A stretch of 24,000 nucleotides of DNA, taken from positions 1,317 to 25,316 of the forward strand of contig NZ_JBAIYT010000015.1 of assembly GCF_036763125.1 (NCBI RefSeq), read 5' to 3'. This DNA comes from Nitratidesulfovibrio sp. 1201_IL3209 (GTDB lineage: Bacteria; Desulfobacterota; Desulfovibrionia; Desulfovibrionales; Desulfovibrionaceae). The notes under the pieces are model-generated. The model saw only the letters and a program-made list of their open reading frames with translations. It had not been told where the DNA came from and ran no database searches. A program made the translations under genes and the position numbers. Below are positions 2,275 to 23,340 of this stretch, in pieces (the stretch's first letter is position 1; the number at the start of each line of letters is the position of its first letter).

Positions 2275-3162
2275 ATGAACACCACCCGGAACATCCTGGA
2301 AATCGACGAGGAACGTTGCGACGGCTGCGGCGCGTGCGTGCTGGACTGTGCCGAAGGCGCCATCGCCATCGTGGACGGCAAGGCCAAGATCGTTTCCGAC
2401 AGCTTCTGCGACGGCCTCGGCGCGTGCATCGGCAGTTGCCCGCAGGGCGCGCTGCGCATCATCCAGCGCGAGGCCGTGCCCTTCGACGAGGAAGCGGCCA
2501 TGGAGCACGTGCGCACGCGCGACGGCGCGCAGCCCCGCTCCGGCGACCATCACGCCCCCCACGGCAGGCCCGACGGGCACGGCGTGCACGGGCACTACGG
2601 CCTTGCCCGTCAAACAGAACGGGCAGAACAGGCAGAACAGGCCGGACAGGCCGGGCACGGACACGGTCATGGTCATGGTCACGGACACGGTCATGGCGGC
2701 GGCCATGGCGGTTGCCCCGGTTCCATGATCCGCAGCTTCGCCAAGGCCGACGCGCCCGTATTCGGCGTGGCCCAAGGCCCGGTGTCCGGCCCCGGCCACT
2801 GGCCGCTGAAGATCCGCCTGGTGCCGCCCACGGCCCCCTACCTGAAGGACGCCGACGTGCTGGTGGCGGCGGACTGCGCGGCGGCGGCCTCGCCCCTGTT
2901 CCACAGCCACTTCGCCAGGGGCAAGGTGGTGCTCATCGGCTGTCCCAAGTTCGACGACACCGACGCCTACGCCCAGCGCCTGGCCGACATCCTGGCCACC
3001 AGCGGCATCCGGTCCATGACCGTGCTGCGCATGGAAGTGCCCTGCTGCCGTGGACTCACCGCAGCCCTGGCCAAAGCCCGCGAGCTTTCCGGCACCAACG
3101 TGCCGCTGAACGAAATGGTCATGACGTGCCAGGGCGCCCCGGCGCCCACACCTCTGGCCTGA
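2275..3162 (+). CDS. 4Fe-4S ferredoxin-domain protein associated with hcp, with His/Gly-rich linker, 295 aa
   Basis: N-terminal CDGCGACVLDC (CxxCxxCxxxC) plus CDGLGACIGSCP. Central HHAPHG...GHGHGHGHGHGHGHGGGHGG linker. C-terminal Cys-containing domain (GCPKFDD, EVPCCRG). Located directly downstream of hcp, like the ferredoxin-like hcp partner described in comparative genomics (called frdX as I recall). ATG at 2275 is the first Met before the ferredoxin motif. Confidence 0.85.
   Translation: MNTTRNILEIDEERCDGCGACVLDCAEGAIAIVDGKAKIVSDSFCDGLGACIGSCPQGALRIIQREAVPFDEEAAMEHVRTRDGAQPRSGDHHAPHGRPDGHGVHGHYGLARQTERAEQAEQAGQAGHGHGHGHGHGHGHGGGHGGCPGSMIRSFAKADAPVFGVAQGPVSGPGHWPLKIRLVPPTAPYLKDADVLVAADCAAAASPLFHSHFARGKVVLIGCPKFDDTDAYAQRLADILATSGIRSMTVLRMEVPCCRGLTAALAKARELSGTNVPLNEMVMTCQGAPAPTPLA
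2653..2712 (+). repeat. Coding Gly-His dipeptide repeat inside the ferredoxin-like gene
   Basis: ggg cac gga cac ggt cat ggt cat ggt cac gga cac ggt cat ggc ggc ggc cat encodes GHGHGHGHGHGHGHGGGH. It is preceded by an (AEQ/AGQ) repeat encoded by cagaacagg-type repeats. Confidence 0.85.
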
Positions 3163-3200
3163 CGCCCCGGCACTTCGCCAGACCTCCTGCCCACGACGCA

Positions 3201-3240
3201 CGGCCCGCAACGCGGGCCGCGCGCCGTTCCGCGCGTTGGT
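3201..3240 (+). terminator. Possible weak terminator after the hcp/ferredoxin pair
   Basis: cggcccgc-aac-gcgggccg (8-bp stem) is followed by cgcgc-cgttcc-gcgcg and then TTGGT. The T-tract is poor. Confidence 0.3.
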
Positions 3241-3360
3241 AAACCCCGGTCACAAAAAGGATGACGAAACGGCCCCGCCTTGCATACAGTGCGATACGGG
3301 GAAACACTGGCGGCGTCCTTCAGGGGAAGGGCCGTCGCATGGCGGCATCGGGGGCGTTCC

Positions 3361-7167: not shown

Positions 7168-7207
7168 GTGACTGGTCGTGACCGGCCATGACTGGTCGTG
7201 GCTGGCC
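7168..7207. repeat. Two tandem 20-bp direct repeats in the divergent intergenic region
   Basis: gtgactggtcgtgaccggcc / atgactggtcgtggctggcc, 17/20 identical. An additional accggcc precedes them at 7161..7167. Confidence 0.75.
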
Positions 7208-7314
7208 GGGATCGGCCCGCGCATCCCTGTTGCGGCCGTGCGCGGGGTGCGGTAAGCGACGGCAAGCCAAGGACGACCACGGGCGCCCGCGCCCCATCCA
7301 CAGGAGACCATTCC

Positions 7315-7839
7315 ATGAAATACGGCAGCAAGGTGGCGGCCCGCGTCGAGGAACTGCTGCGCGAGCAACTCGAGGAACTGGGCGAGGACCCCGGCGCCAT
7401 CGGCGCACATGACATCGCGGCGCACATGCGCTGCGAGATATGGCCCGACGACACCATGATCTACATCTGGAAGGAAACCCCCATCCTGCGCGTGTCCTCG
7501 GAACAGCACGACGACGGCAGCGTGACCTGGCGCATGTTCACCCGTGACGACGAAGGCGACGGCTTCGCCTCCGATCCGGCCGGCAGCCTGACCCGCGACG
7601 ACGGCCCCCTGCTGGACATGGACCGCGCCTGCGCTTCCCGCGCCGCCGCCCACGGTGAGGACGAGGACGACGACGAGGATGACGACGACGATCTGGACGA
7701 GGACATCCTGTCCGCCCTGCTGGACGACGAGGATTCCGGCAACGACGACCTCGGCGACGAGGACGACGAGGATGATGGCGACGAGGATGACGGCGACGGG
7801 GGCGATGACCGCCGCAACGGCGGCTACCCGGTGCAGTAG
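7315..7839 (+). CDS. Hypothetical protein with extremely acidic (poly-Asp/Glu) C-terminal tail, 174 aa
   Basis: Good SD AGGAGA at 7302..7307, 7 nt before the ATG. The N-terminal ~100 aa have ordinary composition. The C-terminal ~60 aa are D/E-rich (EDEDDDEDDDDDLDEDIL...DEDDEDDGDEDDGDGGDD). I recognise no family. Confidence 0.7.
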   Translation: MKYGSKVAARVEELLREQLEELGEDPGAIGAHDIAAHMRCEIWPDDTMIYIWKETPILRVSSEQHDDGSVTWRMFTRDDEGDGFASDPAGSLTRDDGPLLDMDRACASRAAAHGEDEDDDEDDDDDLDEDILSALLDDEDSGNDDLGDEDDEDDGDEDDGDGGDDRRNGGYPVQ

Positions 7840-13968: not shown

Positions 13969-14967
13969 TTACGGCCTGCTGTCAATGACGTCGCCCGCAT
14001 GCAGGCGATGTTCGTGGCCCTGGGCGTCCACCAGGCGCAGCAGGCCGTCGGGGTCCACGTCGGCCACCAGCCCTTCCACCACGCCGTGGGGCGTGCCCAC
14101 CCGCAGGGGGGTGCCCACGATGGCGGAAAGCTCCTTCCAGCGGGCGATGACCGGGCCGGGGTCGCCCTCGCGCAGGGCGGCGTACCAGTGTTCCGCCCGC
14201 TCCAGGAAGGCGCGCAGCACGTCCACCCGCGATACCGGGCGGCCCAGTTCCGCCGCCAGCGAGGTGGCCGTGGCGCGCAGTTCTTCGGGCAGGTCCCCGG
14301 CGCTGGTGTTCACGTTGATGCCCGCGCCGGTGACCACGTGGGACACCGTGTCGGCCACCAGCGCCACCTCGGTCAGGTTGCCCGACACCTTGCGGCCGTG
14401 CAGCAGCACGTCGTTGGGCCATTTGGCGCGCGGGGCAAGGCCGGTGACCTCGGCCACCGCCTCGGCCACGGCCACGGCGGTCATCAGGGTGACCAGCGGC
14501 GCGGCCTGCGGGGCAAGGCGCGGCCGCAGCACCAGCGAGACGTACACCCCCACCCCGGCGGGCGATGCCCAGGCCCGCCCGGCGCGCCCGCGCCCGGCGG
14601 TCTGTTCGGAAGCCGCCACCACGACGCCTTCGGGCGCCCCGCCAAGGGCCAGCAGCGCGGCCTCGCGGTTAGTGGAATCGGTGGAGCCGTGCAGGACGAA
14701 ATCGCCCCGGCCGAAACAGCCGGTGCGCAGCCCCTGCCGGACGGCGGCCACGGTGAGCACGTCGGCCTCGGCCAGCAGCCGGTAGCCCCGGCGGGTCATG
14801 GCCTCGATCTGGTGCCCTTCCGCGCGCAGCGCCCGCACGTGCTTGGCCACGGCGGCCCGGCTCACGCCGAGCAGCCGCGAAAGTTCCTCTCCCGATCGCC
14901 AGTTGCCGCCCGCTTCGCGCAACATGGCGAACACACGCCCCTTCGTGGTCGTCCTGTCAGTGTCCAC
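13969..14967 (-). CDS. birA: Bifunctional biotin-[acetyl-CoA-carboxylase] ligase / biotin operon repressor, 332 aa
   Basis: N-terminal winged HTH (SGEELSRLLGVSRAAVAKHVRALRAEG). Ligase core STNREA...EQTAGRGRAGRAW and KWPNDV. The start is uncertain: GTG 14967 lies only 5 nt from the operator and lacks an SD. An internal ATG at 14925 (MLREAGG) is the alternative. Confidence 0.88.
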   Translation of the reverse strand: MDTDRTTTKGRVFAMLREAGGNWRSGEELSRLLGVSRAAVAKHVRALRAEGHQIEAMTRRGYRLLAEADVLTVAAVRQGLRTGCFGRGDFVLHGSTDSTNREAALLALGGAPEGVVVAASEQTAGRGRAGRAWASPAGVGVYVSLVLRPRLAPQAAPLVTLMTAVAVAEAVAEVTGLAPRAKWPNDVLLHGRKVSGNLTEVALVADTVSHVVTGAGINVNTSAGDLPEELRATATSLAAELGRPVSRVDVLRAFLERAEHWYAALREGDPGPVIARWKELSAIVGTPLRVGTPHGVVEGLVADVDPDGLLRLVDAQGHEHRLHAGDVIDSRP

Positions 14968-14972
14968 GGCGA

Positions 14973-15005
14973 TTGTAAACCATCAGGCAATTGCTTGGTT
15001 GACAA
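14973..15005. promoter_or_regulatory. BirA operator (bioO) in the birA/bioB divergent region
   Basis: TTGTAAACC-N15-GGTTGACAA. The arms are 8/9 complementary and match the well-known BirA box TTGTAAACC-N14/15-GGTTTACAA. The right arm contains TTGACA (14999..15004), which could serve as the bioB -35, with TACTCG 17 nt downstream. Confidence 0.8.
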
Positions 15006-15063
15006 AAAGGAACACGCCCGCTACTCGCCCTGAACTGCCATTCAACAGGAGCGCTACCGGTAC

Positions 15064-16191
15064 ATGAACCCCCTGCTGGAACGTTTGCGCGCGCGCCTTT
15101 CGGACACCATTCCCCCCGGAACGGAGACTTCTTGCGCATCGCCAAGCCGCGCCCACGCGGCCAAAGGCTCCCCGTCCGGCATCACCGGAGAGGAGGCGCT
15201 GGCCGTGGCGCGGCTGCCCGCGTCCGACATCCTGGACATCCTGGCCGTGGCGCAGGCCGTGCGTTCGGCCCGCAAGGGACCGCTGGCGACCACCTGCGGC
15301 ATCGTCAACGCAAAGTCGGGCCGCTGCGGCGAGGACTGCGCCTTCTGCGCCCAGTCGTCGCACCACGACACGGGCGCTCCGGTGCATGGGCTGCTCGGCC
15401 CCGACGCACTGCTGCGCCATGCGGAGGAACTGGCCCGCGCGGGCGTGCGCCGTTTCGGCATCGTGACCAGCGGCAACGCCCTTTCGGAGCGTGAATTCGA
15501 CGCGGTCTGCCATGCGGCGCGCCTGTTGCGCGAACGGGTGGACATCGGCCTATGCGCCTCCCTGGGGCAGCTCGCCACGGGGTCCGCCGCATCGAAAGGA
15601 CCGGACGGACGGGGAGAACGAGCGCGCCGCCTGAAGGACGCAGGCATTTCCAGCTACCACCACAATCTGGAAACGGCCAGAAGTTTTTTCCCGCAGGTAT
15701 GTACCACGCACTCCTACGACGACGATGTCGCCACCGTGCGCGAGGCCGCCCGGGCGGGGTTGCGCACCTGTTGCGGCGGCATCCTGGGCCTTGGCGAAAC
15801 GTGGGAACACCGCGTGGAACTGGCTCTGACCCTGCGTGAACTGAACGTGGATTCCATACCGCTGAACTTTCTGCATCCCATTCCGGGCACACGGCTGGGC
15901 CACCGCAGTCCGTTGCCGCCCATGGAGGCGTTGCGGGCCATCGCCATATTCCGCCTGCTGCACCCGGAGCGTGACGTCCTGGTGTGCGGCGGGCGGGAAA
16001 CCACCCTGGGCCCGTGGCAGTCGTGGGTGTTCGCGGCCGGGGCCAACGGCCTGATGGTGGGCAACTACCTGACCACGGCGGGCCGCGCCCTTTGCGACGA
16101 CATGGAGATGCTGGCCGCGCTGGGCGTGGGCGGCGTTGCCGCGCCCGGCGGGACGGCCGCCGGGCCTGACGGCGGGGAGGCGCGGGCATGA
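15064..16191 (+). CDS. bioB: Biotin synthase (radical SAM), 375 aa
   Basis: CGEDCAFCAQ radical-SAM CxxxCxxC motif. YHHNLET, CCGGILGLGE and NFLHPIPGT motifs. AGGAG lies upstream. Confidence 0.94.
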   Translation: MNPLLERLRARLSDTIPPGTETSCASPSRAHAAKGSPSGITGEEALAVARLPASDILDILAVAQAVRSARKGPLATTCGIVNAKSGRCGEDCAFCAQSSHHDTGAPVHGLLGPDALLRHAEELARAGVRRFGIVTSGNALSEREFDAVCHAARLLRERVDIGLCASLGQLATGSAASKGPDGRGERARRLKDAGISSYHHNLETARSFFPQVCTTHSYDDDVATVREAARAGLRTCCGGILGLGETWEHRVELALTLRELNVDSIPLNFLHPIPGTRLGHRSPLPPMEALRAIAIFRLLHPERDVLVCGGRETTLGPWQSWVFAAGANGLMVGNYLTTAGRALCDDMEMLAALGVGGVAAPGGTAAGPDGGEARA

Positions 16192-17681
16192 GCGGACAGG
16201 GTACGGAAAACGGCATGTCCGAGGGGGCCATCGTCCCCTCCACCGACGCCACCCGGCGGCTGCGCGCGCTGGACAAGGCCCACGTGTGGCATCCCTTCAC
16301 CCAGATGCGCGACTGGCTGGCCGCCGACCCGCTGATCATCGCCGCCGCCGAGGGCAACCGGCTCATCGACACCGACGGCGTGTCCTACCTGGACGGCGTG
16401 TCCTCGCTGTGGACCAACGTACACGGGCACCGCCACCCCAGGCTGGACGCGGCCGTGCGGGCGCAACTGGACAAGGTGGCCCACACCACCCTGCTGGGCC
16501 TGGGCAGCGAGCCGTCCATCGAACTGGCGGCGCGGCTGGCCGCCATCGCTCCGCAGGGACTGACGCGGGTGTTCTATTCCGACAGCGGGTCCACGTCCGT
16601 GGAAGTGGCGCTGAAGATTGCCTTCCAGTTCCACCGCCAGGCCCCGGCGCACCTGGGCGGCGACGCCCGGCGCACCCGCTTTCTCAGCCTGAGCAACGCC
16701 TATCACGGCGACACCGTGGGGGCCGTGGCCCTGGGCGGCATGGACCTGTTCCACGCCATCTACGCGCCGCTGCTGTTTGACACGCTGAAGGCGGAAAGCC
16801 CCCACTGCTACCGCTGCCCGTTCGGGCGGCAGGCCGGGGACTGCGGCCGGGAATGCATCGCCCACGTGGAAGACCTGTTCGCCCGCCACGGGCACGAGAT
16901 GTGCGCCGCCGTGGTGGAACCGCTGGTGCAGGGCGCGGCGGGCATGCTGTTGCAGCCGCCGGGCTGGCTGCGCCGGGTGCGCGAACTGTGCGACGCGCAC
17001 GGCGTGTTCCTGGTGGCCGACGAGGTGGCCGTGGGCTTCGGCAAGACCGGCACCCTGTTCGCCTGCGAGCAGGAAGGGGTGACGCCCGACTTCCTGTGCC
17101 TGGCCAAGGGCATCTCCGGCGGCTACCTGCCGCTGGCCGCCACCCTGACCGCCGAGCGGGTGCACGACGGCTTCCTGGCCCGCCACGAGGAGTTGCGCAC
17201 CTTCTTCCACGGCCACACCTACACCGGCAACCCGCTGGCCTGCGCGGCGGCCATCGCCTCGCTGGACGTGTTCGAGGAAGAACGGGTCATGGAACGGCTG
17301 CAACCGAAAATCGCCCGGCTGGCCGCGCGGCTGGAAACGCTGCGCGATCTGCCCCACGTGGGGGACATCCGGCAGCGCGGGGTGATGACCGGCATCGAGT
17401 TGGTGCGCGACCGGGAGACCAGGGAGTCCTACGACATGGCCCTGCGCGTGGGCCACCGGGTGACCCTGGAGGCGCGGCGGCGCGGGGTGATCGTCCGCCC
17501 GCTGGGCGACGTGATGGTGCTCATGCCGCCGCTGTCCATCACCGACGAGGAGATCGACCTGCTGGTGGACGCCACGGGCGAGGCCATCCGCGCCGTGACC
17601 GAGCGCGGGGCCACCGGTGGATTGGACGGGCTGGCCGGGCTGGACAGGCTTCCGGGCGCCAGCGGCCCGGCGGGAGCATGA
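16188..17681 (+). CDS. bioA: Adenosylmethionine-8-amino-7-oxononanoate aminotransferase, 497 aa
   Basis: HVWHPFTQM, SDSGSTSVEVALK, ADEVAVGFGKTG (PLP Lys region) and HGHTYTGNPLACAAA motifs. ATGA overlap with the bioB stop. Confidence 0.94.
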   Translation: MSGQGTENGMSEGAIVPSTDATRRLRALDKAHVWHPFTQMRDWLAADPLIIAAAEGNRLIDTDGVSYLDGVSSLWTNVHGHRHPRLDAAVRAQLDKVAHTTLLGLGSEPSIELAARLAAIAPQGLTRVFYSDSGSTSVEVALKIAFQFHRQAPAHLGGDARRTRFLSLSNAYHGDTVGAVALGGMDLFHAIYAPLLFDTLKAESPHCYRCPFGRQAGDCGRECIAHVEDLFARHGHEMCAAVVEPLVQGAAGMLLQPPGWLRRVRELCDAHGVFLVADEVAVGFGKTGTLFACEQEGVTPDFLCLAKGISGGYLPLAATLTAERVHDGFLARHEELRTFFHGHTYTGNPLACAAAIASLDVFEEERVMERLQPKIARLAARLETLRDLPHVGDIRQRGVMTGIELVRDRETRESYDMALRVGHRVTLEARRRGVIVRPLGDVMVLMPPLSITDEEIDLLVDATGEAIRAVTERGATGGLDGLAGLDRLPGASGPAGA

Positions 17682-18076
17682 CAGGCATGCCCGGCAGCAG
17701 GGATACGGCAGCACCGGCTTCCGCCTGCGCGCGCCGCGCCGTGCGTTGCGGCGTGTTCCGGTTCGACCCGGCCCACCCGCTGTTCGCGGACCATTTCCCC
17801 GGCGCGCCGGTGGTGCCGGGGTCGTGCATCGTGCTGGCCTTCGCGGACGAGGCGGCGCGCTGGGCGGACGGCCCCGCCGGGCCGCCGCGCCCGATACGTG
17901 AAGCGCGCGGGTTCCGCTTCCGGCGCTTCGTCACGCCGGGGGACTACGCCTTCCGCATGGAACGCACCGATGACGGCCTGCGCTGTTCGCTGCATGCGCT
18001 GGCCCCGGCGGTCGGCGAAGAGGGATGCGTCGCCGCACCCCCCGCCCCGCTGGTGACCGGGGTGCTGGCATGGTAG
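17678..18076 (+). CDS. FabZ/FabA-like hotdog-fold (3-hydroxyacyl-ACP) dehydratase homolog, 132 aa
   Basis: DHFPGAPVVPG matches the FabZ HFPxxPVMPG catalytic-His motif. FRFRRFVTPGD matches the hotdog kFr..V.PGD motif. ATGA overlap with the bioA stop, with GGGAG upstream. Confidence 0.72.
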   Translation: MTGMPGSRDTAAPASACARRAVRCGVFRFDPAHPLFADHFPGAPVVPGSCIVLAFADEAARWADGPAGPPRPIREARGFRFRRFVTPGDYAFRMERTDDGLRCSLHALAPAVGEEGCVAAPPAPLVTGVLAW

Positions 18077-18915
18077 CCCGCGCCGCCCTGACGGATTCCG
18101 CCCTGACGCATTCTGCCCTGCGCGGCCCGGCGCTCATCGCCGGTGGCTCGTGCGAACTGGGGCTGGCCCTCGGCGCAGCGCTGGCCGCCGGCGGCGTGGC
18201 CGTGGCCCTGACCGCGCGCGATGAGGCGGGCGCGGCGCGCATCCGCGCCGCGCTGCCGGACGCCGTGGTGCTGCGCCTGCACGCGCGCGGGCCGGAACAG
18301 GGCAGCGCGCCCGAAGATTTCACGCCCTCGACGGCGGCCGCAAGCCATGCCGAAGACGATGCCCCGGAAACCCTGCCCGAACGTGCCCGCACCTCGCTGG
18401 GGTCCGCGCCCCGGCTGTTCGTGGACCTGCTGCATTCGCGGTTCGAAGCGCTGCTGGCCGGGGCGGACCCTGCCGACATCGACCTGTGGGCCGCGCGCGA
18501 CATCGCCTTCCGCGCCCGGCTGCTGCGCGCCGTAAGCCGGTCCATGCTGGCCGGGCGCGACGGGCGGTGCGTGTTCGTCTCGTCCTCCGCCGCCGAACGG
18601 GCCGCGCCGGGGCAGGGCTACTACGCCGCCGCCAAGCTGGCCGGAGAAGCCCTGTACCGCGCCGTGGGCGTGGAACTGGCCCCGCGCGGGGTCACCGCCT
18701 GCTCGCTGCGGCTGGGCTGGCTGGAGGCGGGCCGGGGCGCGCCGTTCCTGCAATCGCGCGCCGCCAACGCCCCCCTGCCGTCCACCCGGCGCGTCGTAAC
18801 CGTTGCCGAGGCCGTGCAGACCCTGCGCTTTCTGCTGTCCGCCCCGGCTGCGGCCATCAACGCCACCACCCTGACCTGCGACGGCGGCTTCGGCGCGCTG
18901 AAACCGGCCTGCTGA
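18070..18915 (+). CDS. Short-chain dehydrogenase/reductase, FabG-like (3-oxoacyl-ACP reductase homolog), 281 aa
   Basis: N-terminal Rossmann segment ALIAGGSCELGLALGAALA. Catalytic SSSAA ... YYAAAK (Ser / YxxxK). C-terminal TLTCDGGF. The start ATG overlaps the upstream stop (ATGGTAG). Confidence 0.82.
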   Translation: MVARAALTDSALTHSALRGPALIAGGSCELGLALGAALAAGGVAVALTARDEAGAARIRAALPDAVVLRLHARGPEQGSAPEDFTPSTAAASHAEDDAPETLPERARTSLGSAPRLFVDLLHSRFEALLAGADPADIDLWAARDIAFRARLLRAVSRSMLAGRDGRCVFVSSSAAERAAPGQGYYAAAKLAGEALYRAVGVELAPRGVTACSLRLGWLEAGRGAPFLQSRAANAPLPSTRRVVTVAEAVQTLRFLLSAPAAAINATTLTCDGGFGALKPAC

Positions 18916-18979
18916 TCCCGCACCGGCGCGGAAGTACCTTCGCCGGAATATTCCCATCACCCCCACGGACAGGAACGCC

Positions 18980-19396
18980 ATGCCCTCACATACCCCCCAG
19001 GAACTGCACGACATCGCGGTCGCGGTAGCCGCGCTGGTGGCCCCCATCTTCGACGTGGACGCCGCCAGCCTGTCGCCCGCCACGCGGCTGATGGCCGACC
19101 TGCCCTGCGAATCCATCGACCTGCTGGAAATAGGCGCCGGGCTGAACCGCCACTTTGGTATCCCGGTGCGCGACGCCGCCGCCTTCCTCACCGACCTGCG
19201 CATCCACGTGCTGGAGGCGGAACGCCATGGCGAATCCCCGGAAGCCCGGCTGGCGCGGGAGTACCCGCACCTGCCCGCCGCGCGCGTGGCGGAAATCCTG
19301 GCCGACGTGCGCGTGCCGGGCGCGCCGCCGGTGCTGACCATCGGCGACGTGGCCGCCTATGTGGCGTGGGCGCTGGCACGGCACACGGGCCGATAG
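18980..19396 (+). CDS. Acyl-carrier-protein-like protein, unusually long, 138 aa
   Basis: LMADLPCESIDLLEIGAGLNRHFGI aligns by eye with the ACP DLGxDSLDxVEL helix II region. The Ser of CESID is the putative phosphopantetheine site. AGGAA lies 5 nt upstream of the ATG. Confidence 0.7.
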   Translation: MPSHTPQELHDIAVAVAALVAPIFDVDAASLSPATRLMADLPCESIDLLEIGAGLNRHFGIPVRDAAAFLTDLRIHVLEAERHGESPEARLAREYPHLPAARVAEILADVRVPGAPPVLTIGDVAAYVAWALARHTGR

Positions 19397-19431
19397 GCCT
19401 GACCGTCCCCGCAGCAGTGGCCGCCAAACAC

Positions 19432-20772
19432 ATGCAGCCCCGTTTCCGCCCTCCCCATTCCCCCCGCCGCGTGGCCGTCACCGGCGTGAGCGCGGTGACG
19501 CCCCTGGGGCATACCCCGCAGGACGTGGCCCGCGCCATCCGCGACGGGCACAGCCCGTTCCGCCATGCCGTGGCCCTGCCCGGCGCGGCCTGCGCGCCCG
19601 CGCGGAACTTCGACGAGGCGGCGGCCACCGGACGCTGGCGGCACCGCCGCTACCTTTCGCGCGGCGGGCTGCTGGCGCTGGCCTCGGCCCTGGCCGCCAC
19701 CCGGCAGGCCGGATACGCCTGCGGCGACGGAACCGACGGTGCGGTGGGCGACGGCGGCACCCCGCCCCCGCTCCCCTTTCCGGACGGCACCGCGCTGGTG
19801 GCCGCCAGCGGCCCCAACATGGACGTGGGGGCCGACTTTCCGGCGGCCTGCGGACGAATCAGGCCGCCGCACGACACCCCGCCGGGGCTTGAGCACCCCG
19901 ATCTGGACGCGCTGTGGATGCTGCGCTGGCTGCCCAACACCGTCGCCTCGGCCGTGGCCATGCGCTGCGGAATCCGGGGCGAAGGACTGGTGCTGGGCAC
20001 GGCCTGCGCCGCCTCGTTGCAGGCCGTGGGCGAGGCCGCCCGGCGGGTGCGCTGGGGCCTTGCCCCGGCGGCGCTGGCCGTGGGCGGCGATTCGCGCCTG
20101 TCGGAAGGGGGCCTTCTGGGCTACGCCCGCGCCGGGGCCATCCAGCGCGACCTGGACCTCGCCGATGCAACGGCCCCCCACATGGCCTGCCGCCCCTTCG
20201 ACAGGGCGCGGCGCGGCTTCGTGCCCGGCGAAGGAGGCGCGGCCTTCGTGCTGGAACCGCTGGACGCGGCGCTGGCGCGCGGGGCCACGCCGCTGGCCGA
20301 AATCCTGGGCATGGGGGCCACGCTGGACGGACACGCCCTGACCGCGCCGGAGCCCGACGCCCGCCGGGCCGAGGCCGCCGTGCGCGGCGCGCTGGCCGAG
20401 GCGGGGCTTGCCCCCGGCGACGTGCACTGGGTAGCGGCCCACGGCACCGGCACCGCCCTCAACGACGCGGCGGAAATCCGCCTGCTGGAACGGGTGTTCG
20501 CCAATGCGGGCCACGCGCCCGCCGTCACCGCCGTGAAGTCGTGGACCGGGCACTGCGCCTCGGCCTGCGGCGCGGTGGAACTGGCCGTGCTGCTGGCCTG
20601 CGCGGCGGACGGCTTTCTGCCGCCGGTGCGCAACCTGTCCGCGCCGGAAAGCGGGCGGCTGGACTTCGTGCGCGAAATGCGCCCCCTGCCCGGTACCGGG
20701 GGTGGTTCCGTCGGGCTGCTGCTCAACTTCGGCTTCGGCGGGCAGAACGCGGCGCTGGTGGTGCGACTGTGA
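19432..20772 (+). CDS. Beta-ketoacyl-ACP synthase, KAS I/II (FabF/FabB) type, 446 aa
   Basis: RRVAVTGVSAVTPLG N-terminus. Active-site LGTACAAS (Cys), AAHGTGT (His) and VKSWTGHCASACG (Lys/His) give a Cys-His-His triad. The start is uncertain: ATG 19432 or GTG 19417, and neither has a clear SD. Confidence 0.88.
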   Translation: MQPRFRPPHSPRRVAVTGVSAVTPLGHTPQDVARAIRDGHSPFRHAVALPGAACAPARNFDEAAATGRWRHRRYLSRGGLLALASALAATRQAGYACGDGTDGAVGDGGTPPPLPFPDGTALVAASGPNMDVGADFPAACGRIRPPHDTPPGLEHPDLDALWMLRWLPNTVASAVAMRCGIRGEGLVLGTACAASLQAVGEAARRVRWGLAPAALAVGGDSRLSEGGLLGYARAGAIQRDLDLADATAPHMACRPFDRARRGFVPGEGGAAFVLEPLDAALARGATPLAEILGMGATLDGHALTAPEPDARRAEAAVRGALAEAGLAPGDVHWVAAHGTGTALNDAAEIRLLERVFANAGHAPAVTAVKSWTGHCASACGAVELAVLLACAADGFLPPVRNLSAPESGRLDFVREMRPLPGTGGGSVGLLLNFGFGGQNAALVVRL

Positions 20773-21248
20773 CCCTTTTCCGCCATGCCCTTCCGGAGGA
20801 GACCCCCGCCCGCTTCCTGCTGCTGGACCGGGTGGACCGCTGCGACGCCGCGGGGGCCACGGGCCGCCGCGCCTTCGCCGGCGCACCCCCATGGCAGGGG
20901 CTGGAAGCCATGGCCCAACTGGCCGCGCTGCACGCCCGCTGGTCCTCCGGCTTTTCCCTCCACGCCTTTCTGCTGACGGTACAGGAATGCAACTGGCCGC
21001 CTGCCGACGTTTTGCACGGCCCCTCCCGCATCCGGGCCGACCTGCTGGCCCAAAGCGAGCGCGCCGCCACCTACGCCACGACCATCACGCCCATTCCGCA
21101 GGTGCCCGGCGCAGACACCCCGCCCGCGCCCCCGAGCATGGCCGCCACCCTGATCATCGGCCGCACGGCCTACGACACCCGCTTCAACGGCGACGTACTC
21201 GCCGCCCGTTATCGAGAGATATTCGCATGGCTGACCACAACCCCCTGA
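20769..21248 (+). CDS. Hypothetical protein, probable divergent hotdog-fold (FabZ-like) subunit, 159 aa
   Basis: FLLLDRV and GLEAMAQLAAL resemble the FabZ LLDRV and EAMAQ (catalytic Glu) motifs, but there is no HFP His motif. The GTG start overlaps the KS stop (GTGA), with GGTGGTG 5 nt upstream. The 3' end overlaps bioF by 22 nt. Confidence 0.58.
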   Translation: MTLFRHALPEETPARFLLLDRVDRCDAAGATGRRAFAGAPPWQGLEAMAQLAALHARWSSGFSLHAFLLTVQECNWPPADVLHGPSRIRADLLAQSERAATYATTITPIPQVPGADTPPAPPSMAATLIIGRTAYDTRFNGDVLAARYREIFAWLTTTP

Positions 21249-22597
21249 CCGCCGGACCCACGCCCGGCCCCTCCCCCGCCGCCGCGCCATCCCCGGCCGC
21301 TCCCGGCCTGCTGGCCGCGCGCCTGACCCTGCGGATGGAGGAATTGCACGCCGCCGGTCTTGGCCGCAGCGCCCCACTGCTGGACGGACTGCCCGCCTCC
21401 GCCGCCGTCCCTTCCGGAGACATCGGGAATGCCCCCTCCCCGGCGCTGGTGCACATGGACGGCCGTCCGCTGCTCCATTTCGCGGGCAACGACTACCTTG
21501 GCCTGGCCGCCGACGGGGCGTGGCGGGCCACGGTGGCCGCCTGCTTCGCGCGCCATGCGCCCTCGGGCACGGCCTCGCGCCTGGCCGCCGGGCACACCGC
21601 GCTGGCGGCGGACGCCGAGGCCGCGTGGGCCGAATACTTCGGCTATGCGGAATGCCTGTTCCTGCCCAGCGGCTACCAGGCCAACCTGGCCCTGCTCTGG
21701 GGCCTGCTGGGCCACGGTGACGCGGTATTCCTGGACCGCCGGGTGCACGCCAGCATGGCCCATGCCCTGCCCCCCACCGGGGCGCGGCTGCACACCCACC
21801 GCCACGCGGACATGGACGACCTGTCGCGCCGCCTGGCCGCATGGCGGGCCGCAGGCAACGACGGTCCCCCCGCGCGGGGTACCGGTTGCGCGCCCCAGCC
21901 CGTGGTCCTGGCCGAATCGCTGTACAGCATGGACGGCACCCTGCCGGACATGGCCCGGCTGGGCGCGGTGGCCCGCGAGCACGGGGCCTTCGTCATCGTG
22001 GACGAGGCCCACGCCTTCGGCGCGCTGGGCGCTGGCGGCCGCGGCCGGGCGCACGGCGTGGCCGACGCCGCCGTGGGCACGCTGGGCAAGGCGCTGGGGC
22101 TGTTCGGGGCGTTCCTGCTGCTGCCGCGCGGCACCCGGAATGCGCTGGAAAACCTGGCCTCGCCGCTGATCCACTCCACCGCCCTGCCGGAGGCGCACGC
22201 CGCCTGCTGCCTGGCCCTGCTGGACCTGCTGCCCCGGCTGGACGACCGCCGCCATCACCTCGCCGCGCTGGGTGCGGCCCTGCGCGCCGGATTGCGCGCC
22301 GAAGGCATGCCGGTACGCGAGGGCGCGCACGTGGTCTGCGTGGACGTGGGCGACGAGGCCCGCTGCACCCGCCTTGCCGCGAAGCTGCGCACACCCGCTG
22401 GCGGCGGCCCCGGCGTGCTGGCCCTGGCCGCGCGCCACCCCACCGTGGGGCGCGGCGCGGCCGTGCTGCGCCTGGGCCTTACCGCCCTGCACCGGGTGGA
22501 CGACGTGGCCCGCTGCGTGGACCTGCTGGCCCGCGCCTGGAAGGAAGAGGAAGAGCGGGGCGCTGCCCCGCACCACACGACCGGAGAATCCTCATGA
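21227..22597 (+). CDS. bioF: 8-amino-7-oxononanoate synthase, 456 aa
   Basis: FAGNDYLGLA, SGYQANLA, DEAHAFGALG and the GTLGKALG PLP-lysine motif. Start ATG 21227 (MADHNPL). Confidence 0.92.
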   Translation: MADHNPLTAGPTPGPSPAAAPSPAAPGLLAARLTLRMEELHAAGLGRSAPLLDGLPASAAVPSGDIGNAPSPALVHMDGRPLLHFAGNDYLGLAADGAWRATVAACFARHAPSGTASRLAAGHTALAADAEAAWAEYFGYAECLFLPSGYQANLALLWGLLGHGDAVFLDRRVHASMAHALPPTGARLHTHRHADMDDLSRRLAAWRAAGNDGPPARGTGCAPQPVVLAESLYSMDGTLPDMARLGAVAREHGAFVIVDEAHAFGALGAGGRGRAHGVADAAVGTLGKALGLFGAFLLLPRGTRNALENLASPLIHSTALPEAHAACCLALLDLLPRLDDRRHHLAALGAALRAGLRAEGMPVREGAHVVCVDVGDEARCTRLAAKLRTPAGGGPGVLALAARHPTVGRGAAVLRLGLTALHRVDDVARCVDLLARAWKEEEERGAAPHHTTGESS

Positions 22598-23340
22598 ACA
22601 CTACGCACGCAGCCCCCTCCCGCGCCCTGTTCGTGGTGGGCACGGACACGGGCGTGGGCAAGACGGTGGTCTCCATGCTGCTGCTGCGCGAGCTGTTCGC
22701 GCGGGGGGAGCGGCCGTTCTACGCCAAGCCCATGCAGACCGGGTGCAGGGATCCGTACGACACGGACAGCGACGCGGCCTTCGTGTACCAGCACGTTCCG
22801 GAACTGGCCGGGCGCGACCCGGCGGAGGCGGTGGGGTGGTGCTTCGCGGCGCCCAAAGCTCCGCTCCACGCCGCGCGGGACGAACTGCGCGGCGTGGAGA
22901 CGGAAGACCTGGTGCGCAGTCTGGCATGTCTGCGCGGTGAACACGCCTCGCTGGTCCTCGAGGGCGCGGGCGGCCTGATGGTGCCGTTCACGCCGGAAGC
23001 CCTGTGCATCGACTGCATCCGGGCCGCCGACGCCCGTCCCGTGCTGGTGGCGCGGGCGGGGCTGGGCACCGTGAACCACACGCTCCTCTCGGTGGAGGCG
23101 CTGGTCCGGAGAGGGATGGAACCGGCAGGGATCGTTTTCGTTCACACCAAGGAACGTTCCGCATCCCCGGACCTTGTGCGGGACAACATGGAGGCGGTAG
23201 CCATGCTGTCCGGTTTTCCGGTGAGCGGCGTGGTGCCGCCCATCGAAAATCTGCTGCATCCGCCCGACGCCGCCTTCGCGCCGCTGCGGCGCATGCTCGA
23301 CGTGCTGGACGGGACGGACAGGGTGACGACGCCCTGCTGA
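22594..23340 (+). CDS. bioD: Dethiobiotin synthetase, 248 aa
   Basis: FVVGTDTGVGKT P-loop, LVLEGAGGLMVP, GTVNHTLL. ATGA overlap with the bioF stop. Confidence 0.92.
   Translation: MNTTHAAPSRALFVVGTDTGVGKTVVSMLLLRELFARGERPFYAKPMQTGCRDPYDTDSDAAFVYQHVPELAGRDPAEAVGWCFAAPKAPLHAARDELRGVETEDLVRSLACLRGEHASLVLEGAGGLMVPFTPEALCIDCIRAADARPVLVARAGLGTVNHTLLSVEALVRRGMEPAGIVFVHTKERSASPDLVRDNMEAVAMLSGFPVSGVVPPIENLLHPPDAAFAPLRRMLDVLDGTDRVTTPC

Follow-up and report, generated by a model that had tools for sequence, protein, structure and literature searches.

How can a biosynthetic pathway dehydrate its 3-hydroxyacyl intermediates when neither of its two candidate dehydratases carries a complete active site? 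The question is raised by a 24,000-nucleotide stretch of genomic DNA from Nitratidesulfovibrio sp. 1201_IL3209 (Desulfobacterota; RefSeq assembly GCF_036763125.1, contig NZ_JBAIYT010000015.1, positions 1,317 to 25,316 of the forward strand; hereafter the window, in whose own coordinates all positions are given). Its plus strand carries a biotin operon with the gene order bioB, bioA, HD1, KR, ACP, KS, HD2, bioF, bioD, in which genes for a ketoreductase (KR), an acyl carrier protein (ACP) and a ketosynthase (KS) are accompanied by those for two small proteins, HD1 and HD2, that resemble the hotdog-fold dehydratase FabZ. In the FabZ of Helicobacter pylori (HpFabZ) the active site is formed by His58′ and Glu72 from different monomers (PMC5143422), as the initial annotation of the window had correctly stated when it proposed, from an alignment by eye, that HD1 and HD2 each retain one half of this catalytic dyad.

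The preferred answer, to which a probability of roughly two in three is assigned, is that HD1 and HD2 each supply one half of a single 3-hydroxyacyl-ACP dehydratase that is dedicated to making the pimeloyl-ACP precursor of biotin and acts as a heterodimer with one active site. The basis for this reading consists of complementary catalytic residues, the hotdog folds of both proteins, their strict co-occurrence and their operon context; the physical heterodimer is itself a prediction, supported by deduction from these observations and by precedent.

The FabZ dyad in HD1 and HD2

HD1 (17678-18076, plus strand) is a protein of 132 amino acids and the smaller of the two, and is FabZ/ApeI-like. A phmmer search against the FabZ chains of the PDB aligned its segment HFPGAPVVPGSCIVLAFAD over HFPkrPVmPGvliiEAlAQ in a match covering residues 33-92, which places His39 (codon 17792-17794, within HFPGAPVVPG) on the catalytic His of FabZ and Leu53 (17834-17836) on the catalytic Glu. 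The best E-value was 1.3e-4 with the single sequence and 1e-10 with a family profile. Among 24 HD1 relatives His39 and the surrounding HFPGAP..PG frame are invariant, and no conserved acidic residue was found anywhere in the protein. The Pfam PF07977 score of HD1 is 23.6 bits, just over the gathering threshold of 23 bits. The AlphaFold2 model has a hotdog fold (predicted local distance difference test score, pLDDT, 81) with a central helix that begins right after Pro47, the P of the ‘PG’ pair, and its best Foldseek matches in the PDB are all FabZ. Members of the HD1 family also give weak PKS_DH_N matches, and a precomputed match to PF22818 (‘ApeI-like’) exists for HD1 orthologues in nine loci without a weak mark and for one further orthologue (L012) with such a mark; the window HD1 itself has no PF22818 match in the Pfam scan used, and the HD1 profile reaches only E = 0.035 against 6qsr_A.

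HD2 (20769-21248, plus strand; 159 amino acids), the larger subunit, is barely recognised by sequence libraries. In Pfam, the FabA model matches residues 44-61 only, with 11.3 bits and E = 0.26, which is under the 23-bit threshold of PF07977; a comparison with NCBIfam gave no match; and among PDB sequences a single-sequence search returned only a chance match (E = 0.9) and a 105-sequence profile returned nothing. Two HD2 orthologues have a faint match to PF22817 (‘ApeP-like’). Because HD2 and its tested relatives do not reach the cut-offs of Pfam and NCBIfam, the family is annotated as ‘hypothetical’; the window HD2 is 100% identical to a ‘hypothetical protein’ of Nitratidesulfovibrio sp. 1201_IL3209. 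Its structure is more informative. The AlphaFold2 model, built with 105 homologues (pLDDT 88, predicted TM-score 0.84), consists of two strands, a long helix (residues 41-59), four further strands and an extra C-terminal helix (141-157), an arrangement that corresponds to a hotdog fold, and Foldseek ranks FabZ chains and 6qsr_B (ApeP; rank 3, TMq 0.61) among its matches. When the HD2 family was aligned with Escherichia coli FabZ by hhalign (E = 1.1e-4, probability 56%), both the FabZ-like N-terminal motif FLLLDRV and the LEAMAQ motif were matched, and Glu46 fell on Glu68 of FabZ.

Conservation in HD2 was counted over 264 family members. Glu46 (20904-20906, within LEAMAQ), which is the sixth residue of the central helix as in FabZ, is conserved in 260/260 and Gln50 in 262/263. 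Three basic residues are near-invariant: Arg57 (20937-20939; 261/263), His55 (20931-20933; 254/263) and His65 (20961-20963; 254/264). At the position of the catalytic His, an ungapped register places Gly32 (20862-20864), the residue also named in the initial annotation, and hhalign, with a three-residue gap, places Ala35. The Ala35 register is the less likely of the two, because Pro40 of HD2 immediately precedes the central helix, just as Pro47 does in HD1, and because the ApeP segment LPGWFALELMAQ needs no gap to align with HD2 or with FabZ. Either register leads to the same result: no His occurs at column 32 or column 35 in 257 sequences, column 32 being Ala or Gly and column 35 variable. 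The short helix and loop that bear the His in FabZ and in HD1 are missing from the HD2 model.

The profile alignments therefore bear out the residues read by eye in the initial annotation, with His found only in HD1, Leu at its Glu position, and Glu (in EAMAQ) found only in HD2. The annotation had also taken HD2 to be a translated hotdog protein, and this too is upheld. The G+C content at third codon positions (GC3) is 0.865 in HD1 and 0.85 in HD2, with GC3 > GC1 > GC2 as in the flanking bio genes, a pattern that marks both as coding frames, and third-position differences dominate when HD2 is compared with four orthologues. The HD2 family comprises 244 cluster representatives (50% identity) among 1.84 billion proteins and is sharply bounded, with 210 of them below 1e-10. 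HD2 is thus a real, conserved coding gene whose product has a hotdog fold. The Nitratidesulfovibrio forms of both proteins have loop insertions rich in Pro, Ala and Gly between core strands (17860-17900 and 21090-21130 in the window), which vary greatly and range from a few to more than 150 residues; the cores are conserved, and the insertions are absent from orthologues of other taxa (comparison of P0033-P0050, P0012-P0023, P0239 and P0257). Some longer HD2 representatives (P0239, P0247, P0257 and others) were considered as fusion proteins and rejected, their extra length being a low-complexity insertion or an N-terminal over-extension with no HD1 domain. A direct comparison of HD1 with HD2, by profile-profile alignment and BLAST, was insignificant and its register unreliable.

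The distribution of the two residues was followed by taking HD1 and HD2 from every related locus with enough flanking sequence. This gave 14 bio loci including the window, among which L009/L010 and L006/L016 are near-identical pairs; the loci were reached from the HD2 side by a genome scan and contig look-ups, and two of them (L017, L018) from the HD1 side. Both genes are present in 14/14, with HD1 after bioB/bioA and HD2 directly after KS. The HD1 His is present in every bio locus, and its Glu position is occupied by Gln in most and otherwise by Arg, Asp, His or Leu, a drift that reads as the signature of a site freed from constraint. HD2 has the mirror pattern: its Glu never varies, and no His occupies the His position. 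Neither family has a conserved substitute for the missing residue at the dyad positions. Judged from these sequences, the complementary pattern is family-wide and not a matter of chance.

Among the HD1-like proteins, Glu at the second position was found only in stand-alone ApeI-like paralogues that adjoin a DUF3298 gene and have no bio genes or HD2 nearby. Such a paralogue of 107 amino acids (L008 8001-8324, L019 6001-6324) keeps both His and Glu (HFPGAPRVPGSCLVEA), overlaps the end of the DUF3298/PdaC gene and lies far from bio and KS genes. This paralogue may be a relative of HD1 that is able to work as a homodimer.

A proposed heterodimeric dehydratase, its precedents and its rivals

In the proposed arrangement HD1 and HD2 would come together as the two monomers of FabZ do, giving a heterodimer in place of a homodimer. 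The pre-helix loop of HD1 would bring His39 to the subunit interface, opposite Glu46 of the HD2 central helix, and these two residues would form one competent site; the symmetry-related site, formed by Gly32 or Ala35 of HD2 and Leu53 of HD1, would be dead. One complete and one dead site would follow because a FabZ site joins the His of one monomer to the Glu of the other. An HD1 homodimer should be inactive because HD1 has no conserved acid. Within the pathway, KS would condense malonyl units on the dedicated ACP, the KR, a short-chain dehydrogenase/reductase (SDR), would reduce the 3-oxo group, and HD1:HD2 would dehydrate the product, presumably 3-hydroxyglutaryl-ACP in one round and 3-hydroxypimeloyl-ACP in the following one. 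Each round would be completed by an enoyl reductase encoded elsewhere, for which the candidates are a nitroreductase of the DVU1220 type or the nitroreductase found between ACP and KS in Desulfobacteraceae loci, and BioF would take the resulting pimeloyl-ACP.

The pathway itself has been encountered before. The ‘extended biotin operon’ type was first noted in Rodionov 2004 (PMC545781), and Desulfovibrio vulgaris Hildenborough has the same operon with the same gene order at DVU2558-DVU2565. In Trotter 2023 (PMC10102598), randomly barcoded transposon sequencing (RB-TnSeq) of that strain identified nine clustered genes, including DVU2560 and DORF42491, as specifically needed for growth without biotin. 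The same study ascribes ‘FabZ-like domains’ to both hotdog genes of D. vulgaris, and from the dedicated ACP of the cluster and the absence of bioC and bioH the intermediates are taken to be free dicarboxylyl-ACPs. A full-text literature search on the D. vulgaris locus tags returned only this 2023 study and its preprint. In the portions of Rodionov 2004 and Trotter 2023 that were available, no complementary His/Glu loss, heterodimer proposal or link to ApeI:ApeP was found. The cluster and its two FabZ-like genes were thus already known; the residue-level split and the idea of a heterodimer are what is added here.

The closest known system is ApeI:ApeP of the aryl polyene (APE) type II polyketide synthase clusters (PDB 6QSR, Xenorhabdus doucetiae), a complex of solved structure that according to PMC8041823 is a heterodimer ‘with a single active site’. 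Its catalytic make-up was read from the sequences of E. coli CFT073 (genes c1196 and c1188) and, by alignment, of the X. doucetiae 6QSR chains, together with that paper. ApeI, of about 117 amino acids, has the motif GHFxVQPLLPGV with the His present and an Asp at +14 in both E. coli and X. doucetiae. ApeP, of about 154 amino acids, has an N-terminal MLLLEDV motif and xLE[LM]MAQ (ELMAQ or EMMAQ) and no conserved His. As in HD1, the His subunit is short and without the N-terminal strand motif; as in HD2, the Glu subunit is larger, lacks the His and keeps the N-terminal motif (LLLxD in ApeP, FLLLDRV in HD2). In both systems the gene for the Glu subunit directly follows that of an elongating KS (apeO-apeP in E. 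coli CFT073, KS-HD2 in the window) and the two dehydratase genes lie apart from each other.

The two pairs also differ. ApeI keeps Asp at the second acid position, where HD1 mostly has Gln, Arg or Leu, and the invariant Arg57, His55 and His65 of HD2 are lacking in ApeP. With family hidden Markov models (HMMs), FabZ reaches 44.8 bits against the HD1 profile, compared with 16-17 bits for ApeI; against the HD2 profile the scores are 7.5 bits for FabZ and 3.8 bits for ApeP, and hhalign of HD2 to ApeP gives E = 0.0065 with a probability of 6%. Because the HMM score between HD2 and ApeP is insignificant and HD1 is nearer to FabZ than to ApeI, sequence does not establish membership of HD1 and HD2 in the Ape families, and the pair is not filed there. 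Kinship of the whole cassette with an APE cluster was rejected: the window KS, KR and ACP are 27-30% identical to the APE enzymes, which is only the generic level for type II fatty acid synthase (FAS-II) components. The setting is different too, being primary biotin metabolism with short dicarboxylyl substrates in the one case and long conjugated polyenes in the other. HD1:HD2 would accordingly be said to work like ApeI:ApeP, and the split may have arisen once or twice.

Homodimeric FabZ, as known from E. coli, H. pylori and Pseudomonas aeruginosa, shares the hotdog fold and the cross-subunit His/Glu site with the proposed heterodimer, and the motifs HFPxxPxxPG of HD1 and LPxxxPFLLxDRV and LEAMAQ of HD2 are recognisably FabZ-derived. 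FabZ, however, has both residues in one polypeptide and two sites per dimer, whereas HD1 and HD2 each keep one residue. HD1 is without the FabZ N-terminal strand, and HD2 is without the His loop and short helix and has the C-terminal helix 141-157 in addition. The double-hotdog dehydratase domains of polyketide synthases (PKS) and fatty acid synthases (FAS) are pseudo-dimers whose N-terminal hotdog supplies the catalytic His and whose C-terminal hotdog supplies the acid; these halves are fused in one chain, whereas HD1 and HD2 are separate genes. The initial annotation had pointed instead to mycobacterial HadAB/HadBC, which is likewise a heterodimeric hotdog dehydratase with one active site per heterodimer. 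That analogy fits poorly. The Had proteins belong to the MaoC/hydratase-2 lineage, HadA and HadC are purely structural, and because the catalytic Asp and His both sit in HadB they are the wrong model for a split dyad; neither HD1 nor HD2 has a MaoC Pfam match at E ≤ 1, the sole match being one of E = 0.11 in one HD1 relative.

A number of observations weigh against the heterodimeric dehydratase. Asp occupies the HD1 Glu position in three bio loci (L007, L009 and L010, the last two nearly identical), as it does in ApeI, so that not every HD1 has lost the acid. A search through 150 representatives turned up no natural HD1-HD2 fusion. By sequence, the HD2 family is only weakly linked to FabZ and ApeP (7.5 and 3.8 bits by family HMM; hhalign probabilities of 56% and 6%). 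In Foldseek, 4HBT/PaaI-type thioesterases (1zki, 3r32, 4qda) stand beside FabZ for HD2 and score as high, and the near-invariance of His55 and His65 means that HD2 may have a self-sufficient site. These last two observations are also what would be expected if HD2 were an independent hotdog enzyme, for instance a thioesterase or one with some other activity on acyl-ACPs, that works as a homodimer using Glu46 with His55 or His65, while HD1 acted separately. Such an enzyme would account for the presence in HD2 of His55, Arg57 and His65, which FabZ lacks, and for the compactness of its family, whose 244 representatives stay separate from FabZ and ApeP. It is nonetheless unlikely. The FabZ signatures FLLLDRV and LEAMAQ are kept in the right structural places, and the pathway would be left without a complete dehydratase because HD1 alone has no conserved acid. 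For a thioesterase in particular, HD2 has no 4HBT Pfam match at E ≤ 1, and free pimelate would need a BioW-type ligase, which such organisms lack according to PMC545781.

HD2 might also be a non-catalytic scaffold or a chain-length or specificity factor, comparable to HadA/HadC or to a KS chain-length factor, with Glu46 in a structural role and catalysis by HD1 together with water or another acid. Heterodimeric dehydratases with one structural subunit do exist (HadAB/HadBC), 5zy8 is among the fold matches of HD1, and the whole His-bearing loop and short helix of HD2 have been lost. The exact conservation of LEAMAQ, with Glu in 260/260 and Gln in 262/263, goes far beyond the needs of a scaffold, however, at a site where the equivalent HD1 position drifts freely, and HD1 offers no other conserved acid; a purely structural HD2 is accordingly judged improbable. 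Far less probable still is that HD1 and HD2 are FabZ duplicates in decay, that neither acts as a dehydratase, and that a housekeeping FabZ serves the pathway. The loss of half of the dyad from each protein and the variable low-complexity insertions of the Nitratidesulfovibrio forms would suit decay, but the core residues show strong conservation both within Desulfobacterota and outside it, and GC3 of coding type, an excess of third-position substitutions and strict synteny all speak against it. The biotin-specific fitness defects of both D. vulgaris orthologues (PMC10102598) largely refute it.

Operon and genomic setting

The operon, with a divergent birA in front, occupies 13969-23340, and its genes are tightly packed with overlapping start and stop codons. 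The minus-strand birA (13969-14967) is separated from bioB by a candidate BirA operator at 14973-15005, an imperfect inverted repeat of the form TTGTAAACC-N15-GGTTGACAA, which is of the type predicted for Desulfovibrio bio operons in Rodionov 2004 (PMC545781). The genes of the operon itself are all on the plus strand. It is opened by bioB (15064-16191; Pfam Radical_SAM and BATS), which is followed by bioA (16188-17681; Pfam Aminotran_3). The ATG of HD1 overlaps the bioA stop codon (ATGA). The FabG-like SDR ketoreductase KR (18070-18915) lies in an open reading frame (ORF) that is open from 18025, and its likely start is the ATG at 18070, which overlaps the HD1 stop. KS (19366-20772; 468 amino acids), a FabF-like elongating ketosynthase, has N- and C-terminal ketoacyl-synt domains, the motifs TACAAS, HGTGT and GHCASACG, and a score of 232 bits, below the cut-off, for TIGR03150 (fabF). 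It lies directly upstream of HD2 and is translationally coupled with it, the GTG start of HD2 overlapping the KS stop (GTGA), and the HD1 and HD2 genes are 2.7 kb apart. The 3′ end of HD2 overlaps the start of bioF (21227-22597) by 22 nucleotides. Together with bioD (22594-23340), the last gene of the operon, bioF uses the pimeloyl thioester from the inserted cassette.

The dedicated ACP (18980-19396; 138 amino acids) has a C-terminal extension of about 60 residues, the PP-binding/ACP models covering residues 11-68 only. The ACPs of all related loci are likewise long (115-154 amino acids; L006 3747-4124, L009, L013-L018), with only about the first 68 residues matching ACP models, and no family match was found for the conserved extension of about 60 residues.

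Other parts of the cluster vary between taxa. Bio clusters of the Desulfobacteraceae type have a nitroreductase-family gene between ACP and KS (L006 4094-4768; L013 5157-5804; L014 5140-5709; L015 5154-5804; L016 5157-5804), and the window cluster is without such a gene. This gene is a candidate enoyl reductase; for D. vulgaris, Trotter et al. 2023 (PMC10102598) suggest DVU1220 in that role. The place of bioA also varies: it stands between bioB and HD1 in Desulfovibrio-type clusters and after bioD in L014 (9271-10566), and it is missing from the cluster in several Desulfobacteraceae loci (L006, L013, L015, L016). Elsewhere in the window, two plus-strand ORFs have no Pfam match, one at 7198-7839 with a coding-type GC3 of 0.85 and one at 2316-3242 that was not picked as coding by the GC3 screen.

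Arg57 and a possible pocket for a free carboxylate

The three near-invariant basic residues of HD2, His55, Arg57 and His65 (20931-20963), have no counterpart in FabZ or ApeP. Arg57 lies eleven residues beyond Glu46 on an unbroken helix, and His65 is at the start of the next strand. The offset of Arg57 is that of the back-door residue Phe83 in HpFabZ (Glu72+11), the gate of the distal acyl tunnel (PMC5143422). At this position E. coli FabZ has Phe79 and ApeP has Gly, and in HD2 Arg57 is invariant. It may be hypothesised that Arg57, with His55 and His65, closes and charges the acyl tunnel so as to hold a free omega-carboxylate. On this idea HD1:HD2 could be a specificity device: a short, closed and positive pocket would bind the omega-carboxylate of 3-hydroxyglutaryl- or 3-hydroxypimeloyl-ACP and limit the chain to C7, and the FAS-like cassette could then elongate a free dicarboxylate without the methyl-ester disguise provided by BioC and BioH. 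The proposal is tentative and somewhat doubtful. The initial annotation had imagined a remodelled tunnel suited to a short dicarboxylate-type substrate, for which the invariant Arg57 provides one concrete if indirect support.

For those familiar with ApeI:ApeP, a heterodimer of HD1 and HD2 will not be surprising; the idea of an Arg57 pocket is open to testing, and HD1 His39 and HD2 Glu46 and Arg57 are the targets for mutation. As the heterodimer is probably obligate, assays of either protein singly would fail and both genes should therefore be co-expressed, which makes the finding directly useful for reconstituting a biotin pathway that is known but biochemically uncharacterised. It also offers a testable structural answer to the question posed in Trotter et al. 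2023 of how a carboxylate can be left free in this route when E. coli has to hide it as a methyl ester. Should the proposal prove true, the split-site design of ApeI:ApeP would occur in primary cofactor metabolism as well as in a pigment pathway.

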